A program made the translations under genes and the position numbers. A stretch of DNA of 64,000 nt, taken from positions 1 to 64,000 of the forward strand of contig CAVSBO010000015.1 in the NCBI GenBank assembly GCA_963726195.1. Reading direction: 5' to 3'. The notes beneath the pieces are model-generated. The model was given only the letters and a program-made list of their open reading frames with translations. It was not told the DNA's origin and ran no database searches. Source of the stretch: Candidatus Thorarchaeota archaeon. GTDB lineage: Archaea > Asgardarchaeota > Thorarchaeia > Thorarchaeales > Thorarchaeaceae. Positions within the stretch are counted from its first letter, which is position 1; each line of letters starts with the position of its first letter. Shown here one piece after another: positions 1 to 30,104 of this stretch.

Positions 1-17
1 TGATTTCAAATTGATGG

Positions 18-674
18 GTGGTTCTAATGGCTGAGAGCGCGGCCAAAACCAGAGGAGGGCAACGACAGAGGTCGTACATAGTCATGAGGGCCGAAACCCA
101 AGAGGCTCTCAAACTTGCCGCAGAATCGTGGAAAGAGAAGGAGGCTCCAAACAAAGTCAAGGTGCACAGACTTCGCAAAAACGAGGTCGGCGTTTTCGTT
201 GATCTCTACAACAGATGCTTCATGGCATCGCCCGACCCCTTCTGCCCCTTGACATTTGATGATGCCAAACGCCTCGAAACAGAGGGCATATTCATCGCAG
301 AGCTGTGGGGAGTTCCATGCGGTTTCATAGCCTGCTTCATTGAGAAAAGTGCTGAATCTGACTACGGCGAAATCACAGGCATAGGCGTACTTCCACAACG
401 TCGCAGAAAAGGTGTCGCCACAGCCCTGGTCCACCGAGCGACCAAGTACTTCCTTGATGCTGGTGTAGAAGAGGTCTATTGCGAGGTCTATGAAGAGAAC
501 GAACCATCCAAGATGCTGATCACGAGTTATGGTTTTACAGAGGTAAGCAGAAGACAGATTCAGTTGGAGGGGGCAGATAGTGCCACTACCGAACGACAAT
601 ACCCTGGCGGCAAGATTATGAGGCGTCTCGGTCTAAGGCCAAGACCGGGGTGTGAGGAATGTAGGGACATTTGA
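18..674 (+). CDS. GNAT family N-acetyltransferase with C-terminal CxxC tail
   Basis: Acetyl-CoA-binding motif A (IGVLPQRRRKGVAT), motif B-like N..S..L..SYGF; ends GCEECRDI. Confidence 0.85.
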   Translation: MVLMAESAAKTRGGQRQRSYIVMRAETQEALKLAAESWKEKEAPNKVKVHRLRKNEVGVFVDLYNRCFMASPDPFCPLTFDDAKRLETEGIFIAELWGVPCGFIACFIEKSAESDYGEITGIGVLPQRRRKGVATALVHRATKYFLDAGVEEVYCEVYEENEPSKMLITSYGFTEVSRRQIQLEGADSATTERQYPGGKIMRRLGLRPRPGCEECRDI

Positions 675-870
675 GCATGAGCTCGTGCTTTCTTGATTGA
701 TGGATTGGCATGCCGAGCTCGCACGCTGCTTACGAGACCGTCCAGTTACTGATTGGCAAAGACAGCAACTCTAAATAGAGACATCCGCGGCCTGTCATCC
801 GAAGTGTTGAAGCAAGCAGCCTAAGTTGGTCTTTTGGACCTCTGGCAATGCCGCCGGGGAGGACGCCGCG

Positions 871-2134
871 ATGGTATCCTACGATGTAGTAGTAGTGGGT
901 GCAGGACCTGCCGGGTCGGTTGCCGCAAATGATTGTGCTGCACAAGGATTGAAGACGGTTCTGCTTGAGAAGTGCGCTTTGCCGAGAGACAAGCCTTGCG
1001 GCGGCGCTGTCATGTTCCGGGGCATCAGCATACTTCAAGGCAGAATACCCGCTCGCTTGGTTGAGCGCAAAATCTACGGGATGAGATTCATGCTTCCAAG
1101 CGGCAAGAACGCCGAGTTCGCTTCAGACAAGCTGATTGGAATAACTACGATGCGGTCAGAGTTTGATGAGTATCTCGCTCGGAGAGTTGTTGATTCGGGA
1201 GCGGAGCTTATCGAAGAGGCCAGAGTCGTAGGAGCACAGACCGCAAGTGAGTCGGCAGTCGTAAGGCTAGGTGACGGACGGGAGTTTAGTTGTAGAGTCC
1301 TCATAGGAGCAGATGGGGTCAATTCGATTGTAAGTCGGTCTCTCGGTCTAAGACCCGAACACAAGGATTTGACAAGAGTTGGTCTCGGTATGGAAGCCGA
1401 CTTCCAAGTGGGCGAGGATGGCGTCATGAAAGCCACACATGGCAGGCCTTACATCCTCGAGATTGCCCCCGTTGAGGGGAAAGTCAGCTGACGGGTGGAT
1501 CTTTCCAAAAAGAGAACACCTTGGAATCGGCATTGCAGGCGCTGCAGTTCACATGTATCCGCTCCGTCCTGCATTTGACGGTTTCGTCGCGAGTACCGAG
1601 AAGAGACTCGGGCTCAATCTGCCGCCTCCAAGAAGAAGGACCTATTTTCTTGGGGCTGATGGACTACGCTTCAGGAATGTAACAAACCGTGCGATGATCG
1701 TAGGAGATGCAGCCGGCTTCGTGGACCCGATGATGGGCGAAGGTATTGCGTATGCAATGAAGTCAGGAGTGTTCGCGGCCAGAGTTGCAGCCCGTGCAGC
1801 CGAAGAAGACAGATACGACGAAGCCTTTCTCTCCGAATATGATACTCTATGTCACAAAGCATTCGAGTCCAGTTTCGCAATGGCTGCGTGGGCTGGCATG
1901 AGAGGCACCTCGTTTGCTGAATTCGTTCTCTCTCGCGCCAGCGGCTATAGGATGGCTTCGGAAGTGATGGCAATGCTCGCGCGAGGCGAGATTGGATACG
2001 CTGACATACCCGTCACAGTCCTGCGAAGACTGCCCCGTGAGTTGCCTGACATACTTCGACATTATCTTGAAACGAGGAGAGGAACGACCCAACGTAGGTC
2101 TCCAGACCAGGGTGCAAGTGTCCGGAGAGAATGA
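871..2134 (+). CDS. Geranylgeranyl reductase family flavoprotein (frameshift near 1490)
   Basis: YDVVVVGAGPAG, DKPCGG, GADG, GWIFPK, GDAAGFVDPMMGEGI; split over two frames by an extra G in AGC-TGAC-GGG (expected TAC). Confidence 0.9.
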
Positions 2135-3138
2135 AGATGCTGCAACTGCGCTCGTTCCTGGTTCTCCTACTTGTGGCTCAGCCACTGTTTCCGATTGTCC
2201 ACCCTTCGTACATACCTGTGTTCGATGGGTCCCAAGCCTTCGCATATTTGACTTCACAATGTAACTTCGGTCCAAGACCCCCTGGATCGAACAATCTCAG
2301 CCTCTGTAGAGAGTATATTGTCAGCTGTATGACGACTAGTGGATGGAATGTCACTTGCCAAAACTTCACGTATCTCGGTGTTGCATGTGTCAACATAATC
2401 TGCCGGTGGAATTCATCTGGCAACGCATCACTGATTTTCGGCGCACATTATGACACTCGGCCTCGAGCCGATCAAGAATCAAATCCGGCGAATAGAACGC
2501 GACCAGTAGTTGGTGCTAATGATGGTGCCAGTGGCGTTGCAGTACTCATGGAGTCTGCATGCACTTTGCCGCAGATCGTGCGCGGGTCAGCGGAGTTCGT
2601 ATTCTTTGATGCTGAAGATTCTGGAGATATCAACGGCTGGCAATGGATAGTAGGTTCCACTTATTATGTCGGACAAATTGACAGTGGCAGGAAAGCGGCC
2701 ATCAGGGGGATGATTTTGCTCGACATGGTCGGCGATTCCGATTTGCGATTGCTACGTGAGACTGGTTCCACAAGTTCGCTGCAGGATTACGTGTGGTCAA
2801 TTGCCGACCACGCTGGCTACAACAAGACATTTCTCAATCAGTACGGGGCTTCAATACTAGACGATCACAGACCATTTCTAGAGGCCGGCATTCCCTCACT
2901 GGACATAATCCAGCACAATCCGTTTCCATGGTATTGGCATACTCTCAAAGACACACCTGACAAGTGCAGTGCAACAAGCCTTGAGATTGTCGGCAGAGTT
3001 CTCGAGGCATTTGTTGTTCAGTATTCGAACCAGACGACAACATTCTATCAGGGCCCCGCATACCTTGTGTATGTTCCCGTGCTCGTCGTCTTCGCCATCA
3101 TATGCTTGGTTGCATACGCAAAACTCAGACGCAGGTAG
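2131..3138 (+). CDS. M28 family peptidase / glutaminyl cyclase-like, signal peptide and C-terminal TM anchor
   Basis: GAHYDTR, GANDGASG, FFDAED, LLDMVG, DDHRPF, WHT motifs. Confidence 0.88.
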   Translation: MKMLQLRSFLVLLLVAQPLFPIVHPSYIPVFDGSQAFAYLTSQCNFGPRPPGSNNLSLCREYIVSCMTTSGWNVTCQNFTYLGVACVNIICRWNSSGNASLIFGAHYDTRPRADQESNPANRTRPVVGANDGASGVAVLMESACTLPQIVRGSAEFVFFDAEDSGDINGWQWIVGSTYYVGQIDSGRKAAIRGMILLDMVGDSDLRLLRETGSTSSLQDYVWSIADHAGYNKTFLNQYGASILDDHRPFLEAGIPSLDIIQHNPFPWYWHTLKDTPDKCSATSLEIVGRVLEAFVVQYSNQTTTFYQGPAYLVYVPVLVVFAIICLVAYAKLRRR

Positions 3139-3201
3139 TTATTTCTGCAATCGTAGTGTTCTAGAGTGAGAGAATTCCGTAAGTCAAGCACGCTTTGGTG
3201 A

Positions 3202-4105
3202 TTGCTTGTGAAACAGGTCGTCCTTTACAGACCCACAGGTGCGCAGCCTCCTGCTGTGACAAGTGTTTCTGTGGACCCTAGCGGCGTCCGCTTAGTGTGT
3301 GGCACATTGGATGGGCGCATTTTTCTCCTCGACGCCAAGACGGGCAAGATACAAAGAGTTCTCAAGGGCCACGAGTCCATGATTTCGGTGGTGCTGTTCA
3401 TTGATGGAGGGAAGCGAATACTTTCTGCCAGCTGGGACAAAACAACGAGGGCATGGACTCGAGCTGGAGTCCAAGGCGCACACGTGCTCAAACAGAGCGA
3501 TCAAGTGAAGGCTTTGACTGTGTGGGAGCCATCCCAAAGGGGCGCCGTTGGCGCACGAGACGGCGAAGTGAGAATCTTTTCGACCACGAGTTTGAGGAAT
3601 TTGAAGAGCCTGCGTGCTCATGTCGCTGATGTTTCGGGTTTGTCATTTGTAAGAGAGGGCAGTCAGACTCGTTACTTCTTCTTACGATGGCGAATGCAAA
3701 CTGTGGGACGTGCGGAGCGCCACGATGCTGTCCGTGCTTGGAAAATACGATGAGCGCGTTAGGTCAATGGCAACTACGTCGGATGGCTCGCACATCTTCT
3801 TAGGAATGCATGGCGGGAACGTACAATCCATCAGCCTTGAGAATCCAAAGGAAACTCATCGATTTGTCGGGCACTCCGATGTTGTCACCTCGCTCTCAAT
3901 AGACCCGAGCGGTAAGCATCTACTATCAGGCAGTATGGATCGTACTGTCAGGGTATGGTCTACCGAAACAAACTCGGAAGAACTGAATCTCAGAGCCGAG
4001 GGCGGCGTGTCGTCAGTAGCATGGGCGGCCAGTGGGGAGGCGTTTTCATCTGACTTCTCTGGAGCTGTGATTTCGTGGGGCCGGCTGGGCGAGCTGTCTA
4101 CCTAA
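3202..4105 (+). CDS. WD40-repeat beta-propeller protein (frameshift near 3664)
   Basis: GH...SASWDKT.R.W and GHSD...SGSMDRTVRVW repeats; two overlapping ORFs join after removal of one base. Confidence 0.85.
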
Positions 4106-4805
4106 GCTTGACGTTCTCGACTCGTATGTTTATGTCGACATAACCCTCCTTATGCCACTTCAAGCGAACCCTGCTGTACCTCTCTTGGCCCGCTGCGAGC
4201 GCCGTCAGTATGACTGCCTCGCGACTTCTGCTTCTCTTGTCGAATGGCACTGGAATCTCTTCTCCATGCATCGCAAGCACGACGCAGTCAGTTTCCCCAA
4301 TACTTGCAGTAGGTGCTGAAAGAATCATCCGGCCGGGTTTGAAGAACGGAGATCTATCTCTCAGACTTCTGACCATCCCTGCCATTCTCCGATGGCGGGT
4401 GATTTCTGATAATGCAGTTCGAACTACATCCCTGAAGTATCGGTCAACAAACCAATCGACAGGTCCTGTATCTTGTTCGCCCTGTTTCGAGGCAGAGGCT
4501 TGTCTGTGCTTCTCAACGGTTGGCGAATCGAACTTTGACTCGAATACAGCCCGAGCGTTCACAAGCGATGTCGTCTCAGGACCATCCGACGATATGGCCA
4601 AGGCGAAGAACCTCTTCTCGAAACCATCTCTCAACGTCTCCAAAGCTTTGGACTGCAGAATAATCTGTCTCTGAATCATGAGCTTGATGGTGTAGTTTAC
4701 CAAGGCTGCATAGAGCTGGAACTGAGAAAGAAGCAATGATTGCTTGTCTTTCGTCAATGGAACACTAAGAAGATTGACGATGAGCGCTTTCCGTTCCGCC
4801 ATCAC
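4098..4805 (-). CDS. Hypothetical protein resembling the N-terminal WED/REC half of TnpB/Cas12f, lacking RuvC
   Basis: Pattern L..PLTKDK..LL.....Y..LVNY.I ... P.FK....L ... I.VP ... RL......Y..I.I; ends before any GID RuvC-I motif. Confidence 0.5.
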   Translation of the reverse strand: MMAERKALIVNLLSVPLTKDKQSLLLSQFQLYAALVNYTIKLMIQRQIILQSKALETLRDGFEKRFFALAISSDGPETTSLVNARAVFESKFDSPTVEKHRQASASKQGEQDTGPVDWFVDRYFRDVVRTALSEITRHRRMAGMVRSLRDRSPFFKPGRMILSAPTASIGETDCVVLAMHGEEIPVPFDKRSRSREAVILTALAAGQERYSRVRLKWHKEGYVDINIRVENVKLR

Positions 4806-4862
4806 AGCTCACCATCGTGATCCGGGTTGGAGGGCCCATTAAGTGCAACTGGTGTCAGGGGT

Positions 4863-5879
4863 TCAGAGCCTCTGGGCAATGAACTGGGCCTCTCCTATGC
4901 TTCGCTTCAATTCCTTTTGTTGAAAGTCGACTGAACCGTACTTAACGAACACTTGATCGTAGAATTCGTTTTCCTTACCTTGCAGCTCTTTCACGACAGC
5001 ATCTCTCTTCAGGTCTGTCAGGCCGTCTATTGCGAGCAGGGCCAAGCCCAGCGTCATCACAGATTTGCGCATCTCAAAGACAGCCAGTTCGTAGTCTCCG
5101 TTAAGTGTCATATTCATGGCTCCGTAGTACTCCCTCTGTGCCTCCGCGAGCATTTCTGCCGGAGCTTTTCCCGTAGCATTCCTTATTCGTTCCTCAGCAA
5201 TCCCGATCCAGTGTTTTACATCATCCAGAATACCGCGCAAATCCTCTTCTTCAAGACCTTTCAGTTTGAAAGCTCGAAGGAACAGACCGTAGGTCAGCGG
5301 GTCGAGCATTCTGACCTCTCTCAAGACCTCAGACGGCTTCATGATGCAGAAGATATCATTCTTCATCAACAGGACTTGACCCAAGTCAAACAGAGCGTTC
5401 CACAACTGATATGTCGCGCTCTTTGTGTCGGCAGTTTGCTCCGATAGGTCCATTGCACTGTTGAGAGACGCGACGGCCTGAGTCTTGAGCTCCTTGATGA
5501 TATCTTGCGGCCATTTGAATTCTGGCGCTCTGTCTTGCCACTTCTTCAGCATGCCTCCGGTATCATGAACGATTCTTGCTCCCTTCAACCTGCAAATGAC
5601 CTCGGCTACCCTGAAAGAATCCTTCATCTTCTTATCGAAAACATTCTCCACGGTTTGTGACGAAAGAAAGGTCATGTCAATTCGAATGCCTTTTCGGTCC
5701 GAGAGAAGTCTCGCTGGAGCCTCCTCATCCCATACGACGCATATATCTAGGTCTGAGTTGGCGGTCGCGGTGTTTTTCAAATAAGAACCATAAACAAGGA
5801 TGCCTTTCACGTGTTCCTTCTTCTTCCATTCGTCGACGGTCTCGGAGAGCGCAGAATCGAATTTCTTGCGAATGCTCAT
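4863..5879 (-). CDS. Pol-beta-superfamily nucleotidyltransferase with two C-terminal helical (HEPN/KNTase-C-like) domains
   Basis: hYGS..K......SDLDI motif, third acidic residue in RIDMTF; SD GGAGG before ATG at 5879. Confidence 0.8.
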   Translation of the reverse strand: MSIRKKFDSALSETVDEWKKKEHVKGILVYGSYLKNTATANSDLDICVVWDEEAPARLLSDRKGIRIDMTFLSSQTVENVFDKKMKDSFRVAEVICRLKGARIVHDTGGMLKKWQDRAPEFKWPQDIIKELKTQAVASLNSAMDLSEQTADTKSATYQLWNALFDLGQVLLMKNDIFCIMKPSEVLREVRMLDPLTYGLFLRAFKLKGLEEEDLRGILDDVKHWIGIAEERIRNATGKAPAEMLAEAQREYYGAMNMTLNGDYELAVFEMRKSVMTLGLALLAIDGLTDLKRDAVVKELQGKENEFYDQVFVKYGSVDFQQKELKRSIGEAQFIAQRL

Positions 5880-6028
5880 CGTGTTGTGTCCTCCCCTGTC
5901 AGGATGCATTACACTGAGGTCGATTTGTCAGATATGACATCATCGGGAATAAAAGTCTATCTGCGAACTACCCACCCGGCAGCGATTAATAGCAGGCCTA
6001 CTTGGCCGAGTACGCAGAGGCTAGTCCC

Positions 6029-6733
6029 ATGGCTCGATATGACGGCAGAGCAAATGATGAGCTCCGACCCGTGGAGATTAAACGCGGGTTCCTGAAGAAT
6101 CCCGAAGGGTCCGTTCTGATAAGAACCGGTGACACACAAGTCATCTGTACCGCAACTGTTGAGCCGGACGTTCCAGGCTGGCTGAGCGGCACGGGACGCG
6201 GCTGGGTAACGGCCGAGTATGGAATGCTTCCCCGCGCTACCAATGAGAGGACCGACCGGTACAAGGTCACTGGCCGTGAACATGAGATTCAGCGGCTGAT
6301 TGGTCGCTCTCTGCGTGCTGCAGTGGATCTCAGCCGGCTTAGTGAACGAGCCCTGAAGGTAGATTGTGATGTCATTCAGGCAGATGGGGGAACTAGGACC
6401 GCATCAATAACCGGAGGTTTTGTGGCGCTTTGTGATGCACTTGACTACATGGTCAAGATGGGCATGATAGACGAACCGCCACTGTTGGGTTATGTGGCCG
6501 CCGTAAGTGTCGGCATGGTGGACGGTGAAGTCTTGCTCGATTTATCATACCCGGAGGACTCTCGTGCTACAGTGGACATGAACATCGTCATGCGTGGCGA
6601 TGATTTCGTTGAAGTACAGGGCACAGGTGAGAACGGTGTCTTCGATCACGAGACACTGGACCTCATGCTGAACATGGCCGAGCATGGAATCAGAGACCTA
6701 GTCTCAAAGCAGAGACAGTGTCGTTCTGAATGA
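6029..6733 (+). CDS. rph: Ribonuclease PH (bacterial type)
   Basis: R.DGR..DELRP, GWVTAEYGMLPRAT, EIQRLIGRSLR, DCDVIQADGGTRTASITG, EVQGTGE. Confidence 0.93.
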   Translation: MARYDGRANDELRPVEIKRGFLKNPEGSVLIRTGDTQVICTATVEPDVPGWLSGTGRGWVTAEYGMLPRATNERTDRYKVTGREHEIQRLIGRSLRAAVDLSRLSERALKVDCDVIQADGGTRTASITGGFVALCDALDYMVKMGMIDEPPLLGYVAAVSVGMVDGEVLLDLSYPEDSRATVDMNIVMRGDDFVEVQGTGENGVFDHETLDLMLNMAEHGIRDLVSKQRQCRSE

Positions 6734-6768
6734 ACGCCAACATGCCCAGATTCAGCCGCGCTATGTCA

Positions 6769-6901
6769 CAAGCTTTATTTAGGAACTTGACATAGTTACT
6801 TTGCTTCTCAGGAGTCGAGTAGAGAAGGCGTTGTCGGACGGCTATGGCAGGTCGCCCGTGTACCATTCTGGCGAATCTCGACTCAGAGCAAAGCTTAAAT
6901 C
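6769..6901 (+). promoter_or_regulatory. Tandem BRE/TATA-like promoters upstream of 23S rRNA
   Basis: CAAGCTTTATTTA (near 6769-6781) and CAAAGCTTAAAT (near 6889-6900) share an AAGCTT(T)A core. Confidence 0.5.
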
Positions 6902-7090
6902 CAAAGCCCAGAAGGCTGCGGAGGCGCGCACCCTTCCTAGAGGTGTGCACGCGGCGTCCGAGCTCCGGAATCAATGATACCGGACGAAGGCCCATCGGGA
7001 CCCGACCATGAGATTGGCGTCTTTCCCGGTGGTGGACCGTCAAGCACGCGACTTGGTGCCGTGCACCTCAAGAGTTGCGGGCTGAGACTG

Positions 7091-10333
<3,243 letters not shown>

Positions 10334-10410
10334 ATGTGTCTATTCTTTCTCAGGCAGAGACATTCTCTCTAGTTCCATGTCTTCGGACAGCGCTTCTTTT
10401 CACTCCTAAA

Positions 10411-11259
10411 CTATGATTGGTCCTTCTTGATTGCATCCACTCCCATCGATGCGAGACAAAGGAACTCGAAGACTTTGTAACCCTCGGTGATGTTGCTAGC
10501 TGTGAATTCCACATTTAGGCCGTCGGTCCTTTTCACGATGGGCAGAAGTTCAGCTGCATCAGCGAAGTATGTGGATTGAAACGTCACCTTGATCTTGACG
10601 GGACGTTCTGCAATGAGCGGCTTGGCTCTCTGCTCTCTCAGGTTTGTCATTGCTTTCTTCACACCTGCCCTCAGCTCCCTCTCGATTCTGCCCATGCCAA
10701 AGCTTCTGGCTGCTCCTCTATTGAGAGACCGTTTGAGCGCAACCGTTTCAACCCAGGGTGCGTACTTCTTGACATCATCTTCGATGAGCTGGTAGTCTCC
10801 GGCAAGGAATATCACCGGAACTCTCAGGTCTCCTGCACTGTATGCGTTGAGAAGGAATTCACTGGCCTCAATTCTGTTAATCTCGAGACGGCCTATGGAG
10901 AGGCCACTATATGTATGGTCGAAGGAAGATTTCATTGTGCCCGCCTTTCCGTGGTATCCTAAGAACAAGGCTGCATCGCATCCTTCTATGCCCGACAACA
11001 TTGATGTTGGTCGAGGATACCCTCTGACAAGTTCCACATAGTCCGGAAGATTGTCTGTCAGCAGGTTAACCATAGGACCGTGACTGTCAGCGATGACAAT
11101 CTCATCAACTCCGTTGCTGTGCAGTTCCTCGGTAACGATGAGCGCGACTTTCGTCGCAATCTGTCTGGCTTCACTGTACAAGGTCCCCTTCAAAGATAGA
11201 TGTCCAGGTATGACGACGTATGGCATTCCTTCCATATCCACAGAAACAAACGCTTTCAC
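10411..11259 (-). CDS. M55 family D-aminopeptidase (DppA-like)
   Basis: SVDMEG, DSHG, GYH, HTYS zinc-ligand motifs. Confidence 0.92.
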   Translation of the reverse strand: MKAFVSVDMEGMPYVVIPGHLSLKGTLYSEARQIATKVALIVTEELHSNGVDEIVIADSHGPMVNLLTDNLPDYVELVRGYPRPTSMLSGIEGCDAALFLGYHGKAGTMKSSFDHTYSGLSIGRLEINRIEASEFLLNAYSAGDLRVPVIFLAGDYQLIEDDVKKYAPWVETVALKRSLNRGAARSFGMGRIERELRAGVKKAMTNLREQRAKPLIAERPVKIKVTFQSTYFADAAELLPIVKRTDGLNVEFTASNITEGYKVFEFLCLASMGVDAIKKDQS

Positions 11260-11422
11260 CGAATCACCTTCCAGACGTCACCATGATTGTGTATTCAGCT
11301 GCAAAAGCATTTTGGACCAAGGCCTCCGATTGAGGTCGGCCTCTCAAGCATAGTTTCTAGGTCCAAAGTCGATTGGTTTATCGGTCGGGCCGCAGGATTG
11401 GAAGAAAGGGAGTCCGGTCTCA

Positions 11423-11653
11423 TTGAGCCTTACTGGTCCGCTCTACCAACGCAAGGGCTACATGAAGCTCGTTTTGCATCCGGACAAGATCATGTTGGAG
11501 GACGTTCGCAGCAAGTATATGTCCAAGACTATCTTCTTCTACGAATTCATCTGGGATACCCCAACGGCAAATCCCCAAGTTGAGGTTCTCGAGGCCCGTT
11601 CTCAAAGCGAGCATACCCAAGCTTTCGTTCAGTGTAGTGATGAATTCTCTTAA
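11423..11653 (+). CDS. Small hypothetical protein (76 aa)
   Basis: SD-like GGGAG upstream; fills the intergenic gap; protein-like composition. Confidence 0.5.
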   Translation: MSLTGPLYQRKGYMKLVLHPDKIMLEDVRSKYMSKTIFFYEFIWDTPTANPQVEVLEARSQSEHTQAFVQCSDEFS

Positions 11654-11931
11654 GACTCGGGCCGTGGCGTCACAAAGAACCCCGAGGTCTCTCAGTTTCA
11701 AGTACCGACACACTGCCGAAGTGGAGGTTACTAGGACTAAGTGACTGCTCGCAGTCGTATGATTCGTGAACAATCTACGTCAAGCAGCAAATCTGGGTTG
11801 TTTCGCTATCGGCTGCTGAACTGCCTTGTCTGGCGACGTCTTGGATGATGGGACGTTTTCATGGCACAGCACAGACGCTGCACAAGGGTTATGTCTGGGA
11901 ATGAGTGGCGACCGATGCCGAGGTCAAGACG

Positions 11932-12969
11932 ATGCCTGAGAAACTCACAGTCGGAACTGCCACAGCAAAGAGAGGAGAGCTGCAGAAAGGTCTCATAAAG
12001 GGAATAGAACTCAACACTACCACCAGAATAGACATCCCAGTCCTCGTGATGAATGGGATGAAAGACGGTCCTACTCTGTTGGTAGTTTCGACACAACATG
12101 GCATAGAAATCCAAGGTACTGAGGTCGTCCTGAGGGTCATGAGGGAGAAGGTTGATCCCAAGAAGCTGAAGGGCGCAATAATCGGGATTCCTGTTGAGAA
12201 TCCCCTGGCCTACATGCACCACCAGTATCTGTCTTGGATTGACAACCTCGACCTAGGTGGTGGAGGAAGCGGCAGCCTGCTAACGGCGGACAAGCCCAAC
12301 GGCACTGCCACAGAGAGACTTGCCTATGCACTATGGCAAGAAGCATGGAGCAAGGCCGACTTGGTCATCAATATTCACTGCAATACTAGACCGGATTCTA
12401 TCATATTTCAGGAAATCAACGTTGGCAACCCCAAGACGAAGGAAAAGATGGAGAAAATGGCGAAGGCATTTGGGGTGACCACGATGGTTGTCAATGAGCC
12501 ATTGAAAGATGATGCCCCTCCAATACTATCAAACTTGGTGGCAAAGAAGGGAGTACCAAATCTTCTCATGGAGCTCATAGACGGTCGTTGGATATCTGAG
12601 CCCTCCACGAGTGTCGGTGTGAGAGGTGTCCTCAACATCATGAAGGCCTTCGACATGATTGACGGTCAGATTGAACCGCAGCAGGGAATTAAGATCATAC
12701 CTGGACCATGCAAGGAGTGGGGTATCGTTCGGGCCAATAGAGGCGGGCTCATTCGATTCCTGAAAAAGCCGGGTGAGTTCATGAAGAAGGATGAGGTATT
12801 CGCGGAGATTTACGACCTCTATGGTGACGTGATTGAGAGAGTCAAAATGCCTGTGGATGGATACACATGGGCCTATCCTTGCGGTGACATTTTGGGCACG
12901 AACACCAGCTTGCAGGCAGTCCAGACAGGCGCGAATGTCGCTTACGTACTAACACAAGAGAGCAAATGA
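11932..12969 (+). CDS. Succinylglutamate desuccinylase/aspartoacylase (M14-like) family protein
   Basis: GPTLL..STQHGIE..G, VENPLA, DLVINIH, C-terminal lipoyl-like domain. Confidence 0.88.
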   Translation: MPEKLTVGTATAKRGELQKGLIKGIELNTTTRIDIPVLVMNGMKDGPTLLVVSTQHGIEIQGTEVVLRVMREKVDPKKLKGAIIGIPVENPLAYMHHQYLSWIDNLDLGGGGSGSLLTADKPNGTATERLAYALWQEAWSKADLVINIHCNTRPDSIIFQEINVGNPKTKEKMEKMAKAFGVTTMVVNEPLKDDAPPILSNLVAKKGVPNLLMELIDGRWISEPSTSVGVRGVLNIMKAFDMIDGQIEPQQGIKIIPGPCKEWGIVRANRGGLIRFLKKPGEFMKKDEVFAEIYDLYGDVIERVKMPVDGYTWAYPCGDILGTNTSLQAVQTGANVAYVLTQESK

Positions 12970-29063: not shown

Positions 29064-30104
29064 TCATGGGGTTCTGGCGTTGGCTGCATTCATGGCCATT
29101 GGGCCTCTGGGGGTGCCAGTGCTCCCGTCCTCTGCATCTCTGTCTGCAAAAGATTGACTCGTGCCCGATGATGCCTTAGCGATATTGAATGCTGCGTTGG
29201 CATCGGCATGGTCAACGTGCCCGCAAGCGGGACACCTGAACTCCTTCTTGTTCCTGTCACCAATCGAGCCACACATGCTGCAAGTCTTGGACGTGTATGC
29301 AGGATTAACGTATTCGACCTCTACTCCTAGCAGCCTGGCCTTGTATTCTATCATCTTTCTTAACTGACAAAACGACCAGCTGTGCAGGGCGTATCTAAAC
29401 GTTCGAGTCGTTCTTGCGGTATCTCTGATACCGCTCAGGTCTTCAAGTCGTATCCCGCACCTATGTTCGAATGCAGTGCCCACAATCTTTCGGCTCATCT
29501 GGTGATTGAGTTCCGTGACAATCTTCGATTCCCTGTTCTTTACGCTCTTCAGTTTCCGGTACTTTCTCATCCGTTGAAGTCTTCTTCTCATCTCCCTGTA
29601 CTTCTTGTGAATATGATGTGCCTTCTTTCCAAGCTTCAAGACCTTTCCTGTGGCAGGGATTGCGGCCACTGCTGCATGACCCGTAGCATTCAGGTCGATA
29701 CCGATGTATCCCTCCGGAGCGAGCGGCTCTGCTTCTTTTACAGTCAGCGAGACGTACAAGAATCTCCTGTCAACCTCTATCTGGTTAATCTTCACAAAAT
29801 CGTCCCTGAACCTGTACGCGAACTCCATTCCGAGGGAAGTGATTCTTATCGTTCTCTTCTCTCGGTCGCACTGTATGCCTTGACACGGAATGGTCAGCTT
29901 GACAGAACGCACTTTCCTAGTCTGCTTGTTTCGTCCGTATTTCCTGAGTACCTGGTTCGCTATCACTGACTTCAGGCCGATGTGTCTTACAGCGGGCGTC
30001 GTTAATGGGACAGGCGAGTTTACCGCAATCCTTGCAATCGTTCTCGCCTTTCTCAGCTCTTCGGAGAAGTCACGCTCGTGCCGAACCTTGTACGTCAGTA
30101 TCAA
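29064..30104 (-). CDS. tnpB: TnpB RNA-guided endonuclease
   Basis: RuvC-I GIDLN, RuvC-II LEDL, P.YTSKTCSMCG...CPACG zinc finger, RuvC-III ADANAAFNI. Confidence 0.95.
   Translation of the reverse strand: MILTYKVRHERDFSEELRKARTIARIAVNSPVPLTTPAVRHIGLKSVIANQVLRKYGRNKQTRKVRSVKLTIPCQGIQCDREKRTIRITSLGMEFAYRFRDDFVKINQIEVDRRFLYVSLTVKEAEPLAPEGYIGIDLNATGHAAVAAIPATGKVLKLGKKAHHIHKKYREMRRRLQRMRKYRKLKSVKNRESKIVTELNHQMSRKIVGTAFEHRCGIRLEDLSGIRDTARTTRTFRYALHSWSFCQLRKMIEYKARLLGVEVEYVNPAYTSKTCSMCGSIGDRNKKEFRCPACGHVDHADANAAFNIAKASSGTSQSFADRDAEDGSTGTPRGPMAMNAANARTP

Follow-up and report, generated by a model that had tools for sequence, protein, structure and literature searches.

The Locus and Its Genes

The window analyzed here is a stretch of 64,000 nucleotides of DNA from a Candidatus Thorarchaeota archaeon (contig CAVSBO010000015.1, positions 1 to 64,000), and the subject of this work is a small gene near its beginning, hereafter X, which lies on the reverse strand between a nucleotidyltransferase gene (NTase) and a WD40 propeller gene. 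X probably encodes a nuclease-free nucleic-acid binder, derived from the WED+REC lobe of the transposon-associated nuclease TnpB and domesticated by one Asgard family. The features of the locus are the following.

3202 to 4105, + strand: WD40 propeller gene, convergent with X (from its open reading frame and the comparison with relatives)
4098 to 4802, − strand: X, WED+REC lobe protein of 234 amino acids (aa), with the stop codon at 4098-4100, the ATG start at 4802 and GTG at 4805 as an alternative start
4441 to 4602, − strand: REC helical insertion of X, ~54 aa, residues ~68-121 (from alignments, ortholog lengths and the model)
4806 to 4862, − strand: spacer between NTase and X, with a ATTGATTAG-like element in relatives and a diverged copy here
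4863 to 5879, − strand: NTase, 338 aa (NTP_transf_2, 3.6e-9; Polbeta, 5.5e-8)
5880 to 6001, no strand: divergent promoter region between NTase and rph, in which CTATTAATC..CGG and AGATAGYTTTATTG are conserved
6002 to 6733, + strand: rph, bacterial-type RNase PH (RNase_PH, 8e-29; RNase_PH_C, 5e-14), divergent from NTase
7193 to 10274: 23S rRNA gene (Rfam), downstream of and co-oriented with rph

The open reading frame (ORF) of X spans 4098-4805 (−) and has 235 codons when counted from the GTG. The ATG at 4802 is the likely start, because the orthologs begin with M[ASP]E; a Shine-Dalgarno-like GGTGA is found ~10 nt ahead of it. The ORF of the NTase was listed as 4863-5909, but all of its 106 homologs begin at its residue 11 (M11) and the gene is therefore taken as 4863-5879. 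An earlier note on this DNA, made from the letters alone, had described a convergent WD40 gene overlapping the stop of X and a co-oriented minimal nucleotidyltransferase with a helical part, divergent from rph. Both descriptions hold: the 3′ end of the WD40 gene, at 4105, overlaps the stop of X by 8 nt, and the NTase has a Pol-beta motif and a HEPN-like C-terminal part.

Predicted Fold of X

The AlphaFold2 model of X, computed from 36 sequences of which the most distant has 27% identity, reached a predicted local distance difference test score (pLDDT) of 92 and a predicted template modeling score (pTM) of 0.89; with 14 close relatives only, the pLDDT was 57. The predicted secondary structure consists of a strand (residues 8-14), a long helix (19-46, with LTKDKQ... 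and Y..LVNY.I), the REC helices, the P.FK linker at 153-158 and the WED strands of residues 159-230, which close with RVRLKWHKEGYVDINIRV. This is the order of elements that had been read from the letters (WED strand, PLTKDKQ helix, REC, P.FK linker, WED strands). The insertion of roughly 50 aa noticed at the same time is also real. It covers ~54 aa (residues ~68-121), contains two modelled helices (81-91 and 94-104) and is limited to the long-form genera (230-250 aa), being absent from the short-form orthologs of 183-205 aa. Conserved residues of X include K21, N37, Y123, D126, H138, P187-R193, R212, R214 and R228. The basic WED motif PFDKRSR is invariant or nearly so among the orthologs, and the isoelectric point is ~10 for the protein of the window and 8.5-11 over 20 orthologs.

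In the Foldseek search of the PDB with this model, essentially all of the first ~48 matches listed were Cas12f, TnpB, Cas12g/k/l/m/n/o or CasX, with a single exception, at rank 49. The best match by VIA-align was to Cas12f residues 3-216 (Z 13.2, root-mean-square deviation 3.5, 176 residues aligned), and ISDra2 TnpB was matched with Z 10.1 over its residues 2-175 and Z 9.9 over 1-179; the WED+REC alignments to Cas12f and TnpB cover all of residues 5-235 of the model. A structure scan independent of Foldseek, against 48,161 representative PDB chains, placed Cas12, TnpB, Fanzor or TranC chains at every rank from 1 to 26 (Z 12.2 to 7.9), and the first chain outside this superfamily followed with Z 7.0 across 90 residues. 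Among the best matches is the structure of dCas12f with its guide RNA (gRNA; 9n9c, Z 12.2). The resolved part of the RNA- and DNA-bound entries 8ex9 and 8dzj_B is WED+REC alone, which suggests that this lobe is an autonomous unit. According to the model, the whole of X is a WED+REC lobe of the TnpB/Cas12f type, which stops where RuvC-I would start.

Homology to TnpB and the Missing Nuclease Half

No match of X was found in the Pfam, NCBIfam, PADLOC or PDB sequence profiles. With phmmer, 16 homologs were retrieved from 1.84 billion representative proteins, nearly all of 179-240 aa with a few shorter fragments and a single longer one of 377 aa, and none of them is a TnpB; another search gave 13 homologs, labelled Thorarchaeota by NCBI. 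A search restricted to proteins of 439-2000 aa, a range that two Asgard TnpBs of 427 and 436 aa fall outside of, gave no match. These same two were the only proteins outside its own family matched by the X family profile in 400 Asgard genomes, over their N-terminal ~100-130 residues (E 2e-6 and 1e-5 per genome). Both have a Cas12f1-like TNB domain and are related to the TnpBs of the window's genome, and one adjoins a serine recombinase as in IS607.

The comparison of the X family with the 436-aa TnpB by hhalign gave a probability of 88.7% (E 2.6e-6), with residues 6-228 of X paired to residues 3-180 of TnpB, and the profile-profile comparison with the TnpBs nearest to the two Asgard matches gave 80.5%. 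Within the window's own genome, TnpB N-termini make up most of the best sub-threshold matches of the X profile.

The same alignments locate the end of the homology. Residue 228 of X stands opposite residue 180 of the 436-aa TnpB, whose OrfB_IS605 (RuvC) Pfam match begins at 187. No OrfB_IS605 match was found in X, which ends at the position aligned to TnpB ~175-180, and none of 14 X family members matched the zinc ribbon of TNB (PF07282) at E up to 10. The earlier note had taken X for a TnpB/Cas12f-like protein of WED and REC only, ending at the start of RuvC-I, and had proposed structure prediction with Foldseek as the check; the confident model, the structural matches and the hhalign pairing all agree with it.

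Conservation, Selection and Immobility

X was found in 79 of the 85 other genomes of one Asgard family of Thorarchaeota type (23 of 24 in a first pass), always as one copy per genome; completeness is 65-88% for the six members of the family in which no match was found. No true ortholog was found in the ~314 other Asgard genomes searched. Its length and locus are conserved across ~80 genomes of at least 16 genera, and the gene order rph <- | -> NTase -> X <- WD40 <- peptidase <- GGR (geranylgeranyl-reductase-like) is the same in all 20 relatives fetched. The ratio of nonsynonymous to synonymous substitution rates (dN/dS) is 0.11-0.18 in pairs with unsaturated dS. Neither hairpins like those of insertion sequences (IS) flanking X nor a second copy of its DNA in the window's genome were found.

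These observations support X as a domesticated host gene, present in single copy at a fixed position under purifying selection. Decay is not the explanation, because the orthologs are all RuvC-less, syntenic with the NTase and under purifying selection. The claims made from the letters, namely that IS ends and a residual RuvC are absent and that X may be domesticated, fared well, and so did the check proposed with them, that Asgard orthologs likewise lack RuvC and accompany the NTase.

The most divergent metagenomic member (L063, 5980-7134, +; 377-384 aa) keeps the NTase-X pair, while the WD40 gene is missing; its X has an unrelated C-terminal extension of ~190 aa with three helical repeats and no Pfam match. 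In the window's genome there are 35 matches to PF07282, the TnpB zinc ribbon, all away from X and several split or truncated, and relatives of the same genus have 1-3. One full-length TnpB of 346 aa lies within the window at 29064-30104 (−).

A Candidate Promoter Element Upstream of X

The exact sequence ATTGATTAG is found 22-39 nt upstream of the start of X in 13 of 19 relatives, and most of the others have it with 1-2 mismatches. It is kept across many genera (spacers of L013-L032), within a spacer that has otherwise diverged; in the window only the degenerate form CTTAATGGG is left. Similar AT-rich elements also occur in the spacer between rph and NTase. The element is probably X's own TATA-like promoter, and this reading weakens that of a strict NTase-X operon. 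As a TAM-like operator (TAM, transposon-adjacent motif), regulon motif or repeat it was rejected: the genome has 10 copies, below the chance expectation, and the copies found elsewhere in relatives have no wider context in common and are not upstream of genes.

The NTase and Its Relation to X

The layout of the NTase is KNTase-like: a Pol-beta/MNT domain at the N-terminus is followed by ~230 aa that are helical and HEPN-like. In 28 orthologs its residues G31, S32, D43 and D45 are fully or almost fully conserved and D68 is nearly invariant, which gives the G-S...D-x-D motif and a third acidic residue. The NTP_transf_2 and Polbeta matches are above the cut-offs, HEPN matches are weak and found in 14 of the 28, and the neighbors in a language-model search (ESM Atlas) carry KNTase_C or HEPN. 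The R-x4-6-H motif of HEPN RNases was not found, the consensus having no invariant His after an invariant Arg.

Within the family, the distribution of the NTase is that of X. In the sister family (G025) a full-length NTase ortholog (E 5e-85) is followed by a 102-aa membrane ORF where X would stand, and both rph and the 23S rRNA gene are still nearby. The NTase thus predates X and does not need it. The complex prediction of NTase and X, run without controls, scored 0.00, a value that speaks neither for nor against binding. The earlier note had suggested that the two genes form a new nucleic-acid modification or regulatory system. The adjacency on which it built stands in all loci; that they are one system does not follow from it, as the whole neighborhood is syntenic, X has its own promoter-like element and X is missing beside the NTase of the sister family.

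Proposed Origin and Role

Most probably, an ancestral TnpB gene lost its whole nuclease lobe (RuvC and the zinc-ribbon TNB) together with the transposon ends, leaving the WED beta-barrel with the inserted REC bundle. This probably happened once, in the forebear of one Asgard family of Thorarchaeota type, and fixed the remainder between the NTase and WD40 genes; since then X has been inherited vertically in single copy under purifying selection. Beyond fold, homology, loss of RuvC, conservation, selection and locus, which are shown, we infer that X binds nucleic acid through the WED/REC cleft, and any target or partner is proposed on the same footing; in TnpB and Cas12f the same cleft holds the TAM duplex, the adjoining guide:target heteroduplex and some of the guide scaffold. 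X more likely binds with no guide encoded beside it than in the guided manner of TldR. In TnpB much of the omega-RNA scaffold is held by the RuvC lobe, which X has lost, and the flanks are too short for a scaffold gene of ~100 nt or more. In most loci the spacing between X and WD40 is -26 to +61 nt, and the upstream spacer is mostly 13-70 nt, reaching 245 nt in a few loci. A role together with the NTase and RNase PH in RNA 3′-end metabolism near the 23S rRNA gene is possible.

Several points weigh against this derivation and role. The sequence similarity between X and TnpB is weak, with ~20% identity to any TnpB N-terminus, and hhalign of the X family against an alignment of 22 full-length TnpBs of its own genome gave no signal (probability 0.7%). 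The best structural matches are Cas12f and not TnpB, so that the exact donor clade is not fixed. The Rfam scan of positions 1-12000 of the window returned the 23S rRNA only and no partner RNA for X. Finally, likeness in fold is no proof of retained function, and the lobe could serve protein binding instead.

Alternative Explanations

The decay of a TnpB into a functionless fragment, or an annotation artefact, would fit a genome in which TnpB fragments are common and an assembly with 1-nt indel errors near X. It has almost no probability given the conservation of length and locus and the dN/dS described above, the lack of any indel inside X in four independent runs and a confident AlphaFold2 model driven by co-variation. 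Only slightly less improbable is that the host keeps X as a dominant-negative inhibitor of resident TnpB elements, competing with them for TAM sites or omega-RNA. N-terminally truncated transposases that inhibit their parent elements are a known principle, and the window's genome has 35 TnpB zinc-ribbon matches. Across the family, however, the TnpB load ranges from 0 to 35, X is kept in two genomes where none was detected (G016 and G018), and at its low identity to any TnpB N-terminus X is too diverged for mimicry of the current elements.

An RNA-guided DNA-binding regulator similar to TldR or dCas12f, with the guide encoded elsewhere in the genome, deserves more attention but is still improbable. 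In TnpB it is WED and REC that read the TAM and hold the guide:target duplex, nuclease-dead relatives of TnpB act as guided repressors, and the dCas12f-gRNA structure is among the best structural matches. On the other hand, both the RuvC fold and the RNA-binding interface are retained in TldRs described so far, with the gRNA beside the gene, whereas X has neither; the spacers around it are short and without any Rfam RNA; and its presence in G016 and G018 (91% and 95% complete), in which no TnpB was detected, shows that it does not depend on resident omega-RNAs.

The rival with the most in its favor, though itself unlikely, makes X the recognition subunit of the NTase, bringing it for nucleotidylation to RNA 3′ ends (of rRNA or tRNA, with RNase PH) or to DNA. 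X adjoins the NTase in the same orientation in every locus, even in the most divergent member without WD40; the catalytic motifs of the NTase are intact, yet it has no recognizable RNA-binding domain; weak matches to the palm of poly(A) polymerases occur in 28 of its 28 orthologs; and NTase, rph and 23S rRNA are linked even in the sister family. Against it stand the NTase of that family, which is present without X and so does not need it, the conserved promoter-like element of X itself and the synteny of the entire six-gene neighborhood, by which the adjacency of X and NTase is not specific. A bolder form, in which X is a nuclease-free programmable or sequence-specific module that brings the NTase to defined sites in RNA or DNA, whether or not a guide is encoded elsewhere, is a long shot, less probable than even the guided regulator. 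If true, the archaea closest to eukaryotes would have a "targeted nucleotidylation" system derived from TnpB, working beside RNase PH and the 23S rRNA gene. The domesticated WED+REC lobe that binds nucleic acid is preferred over all of these.

Comparison with Known Systems

The WED barrel split by REC is shared with the TnpBs of IS200/IS605/IS607 (ISDra2, 8EXA/8H1J/8BF8; ISFba1, 8IAZ) and with archaeal TnpBs of other Asgard families, at Z 8.3-10.1 over TnpB residues 1-180. Unlike them, X has no RuvC, TNB zinc ribbon, omega-RNA region, IS ends or transposase neighbor, and it is single-copy, immobile and vertically inherited. Structurally X is closest to Cas12f of type V-F (9I8Y, 8J3R, 8DZJ, 9N9C), with Z 11.6-13.2 over 161-176 residues (Cas12f ~1-216) at ~10% identity. 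Cas12f works as a guide-bound dimer; X has neither a CRISPR array nor a nuclease lobe, and no sign of a guide or a dimer was seen.

TldR, flagellin-TnpB, sigma-TnpB/dCas12f-sigmaE, Cas12k and Cas12m are, like X, immobilized TnpB derivatives which the host has kept for a non-cutting role. TldR and the other dead TnpBs have a RuvC fold (mutated or C-terminally trimmed), an RNA-binding interface and an adjacent guide RNA and are bacterial, while X stops before RuvC-I, has no RNA adjacent to it and is archaeal. The statement in the earlier note that known domesticated TnpBs keep a dead RuvC agrees with the descriptions of TldR and flagellin-TnpB, which retain at least part of the RuvC fold. In the 2023 census of TnpB and Cas12, the exaptations retain RuvC, with at most RuvC-III lost, and nothing there resembles X; literature searches on RuvC-less or truncated TnpBs and on TnpB in Asgard archaea found no description of such a protein.

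Three families of Pfam 38.1, PF27229 (SSO2105_N), PF27234 (MJ0013) and PF27142 (Aq_aa04), auto-named "transposase (fragment)" and with members of 178-226 aa, are look-alikes of X in the language-model search (ESM Atlas) and so a tentative lead. Instead of host genes at a fixed locus, their members may be TnpBs that are split or fragmentary; no paper on these three families was found.

In the searched literature every domesticated TnpB (the Cas12 effectors, Cas12k, Cas12m, TldR, sigma- and flagellin-TnpB) still has a RuvC lobe, whether alive or dead, and was found by searches anchored on RuvC. X, with its lobe alone under selection throughout the history of the family, implies that WED+REC is an autonomous functional unit, and that censuses anchored on RuvC overlook a class of TnpB exaptations. 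A module of ~180-235 aa might also be a minimal nucleic-acid-targeting scaffold, provided that its natural ligand is specific. In addition, X adds a lineage-specific gene to an Asgard RNA-processing neighborhood formed by RNase PH, NTase and 23S rRNA.

Neighboring Genes and Minor Observations

Compared with contigs from as many as four public DNA runs, the window has single extra bases at 1490, 3667 and 5956. The GGR-like gene is split into 826-1491 and 1439-2134 and the WD40 gene into 3202-3753 and 3710-4105; both are single ORFs in all relatives, the WD40 protein having ~295-303 aa there. Their interpretation as true pseudogenes was rejected, since both splits are 1-nt assembly insertions (at 1490 and 3667). 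The third insertion, at 5956, falls in the spacer between NTase and rph. Within X and the NTase, no indel was seen against the contigs of the four runs.

Wherever the flanking sequence is long enough (L013, L018, L021, L023-L026, L031 and L043), and in the sister family too, rph lies immediately ahead of the 23S rRNA gene in the same orientation. In the sister family, pmbA/tldD-like genes are positioned between rph and the NTase. One relative, G006, has a group I intron within its 23S rRNA gene (L023, 502-832, −; Rfam RF00028, 114 bits). The spacer between rph and NTase is 700-920 bp in two relatives (L027, 3968-4887; L024, 7638-8338) and 50-180 bp elsewhere.

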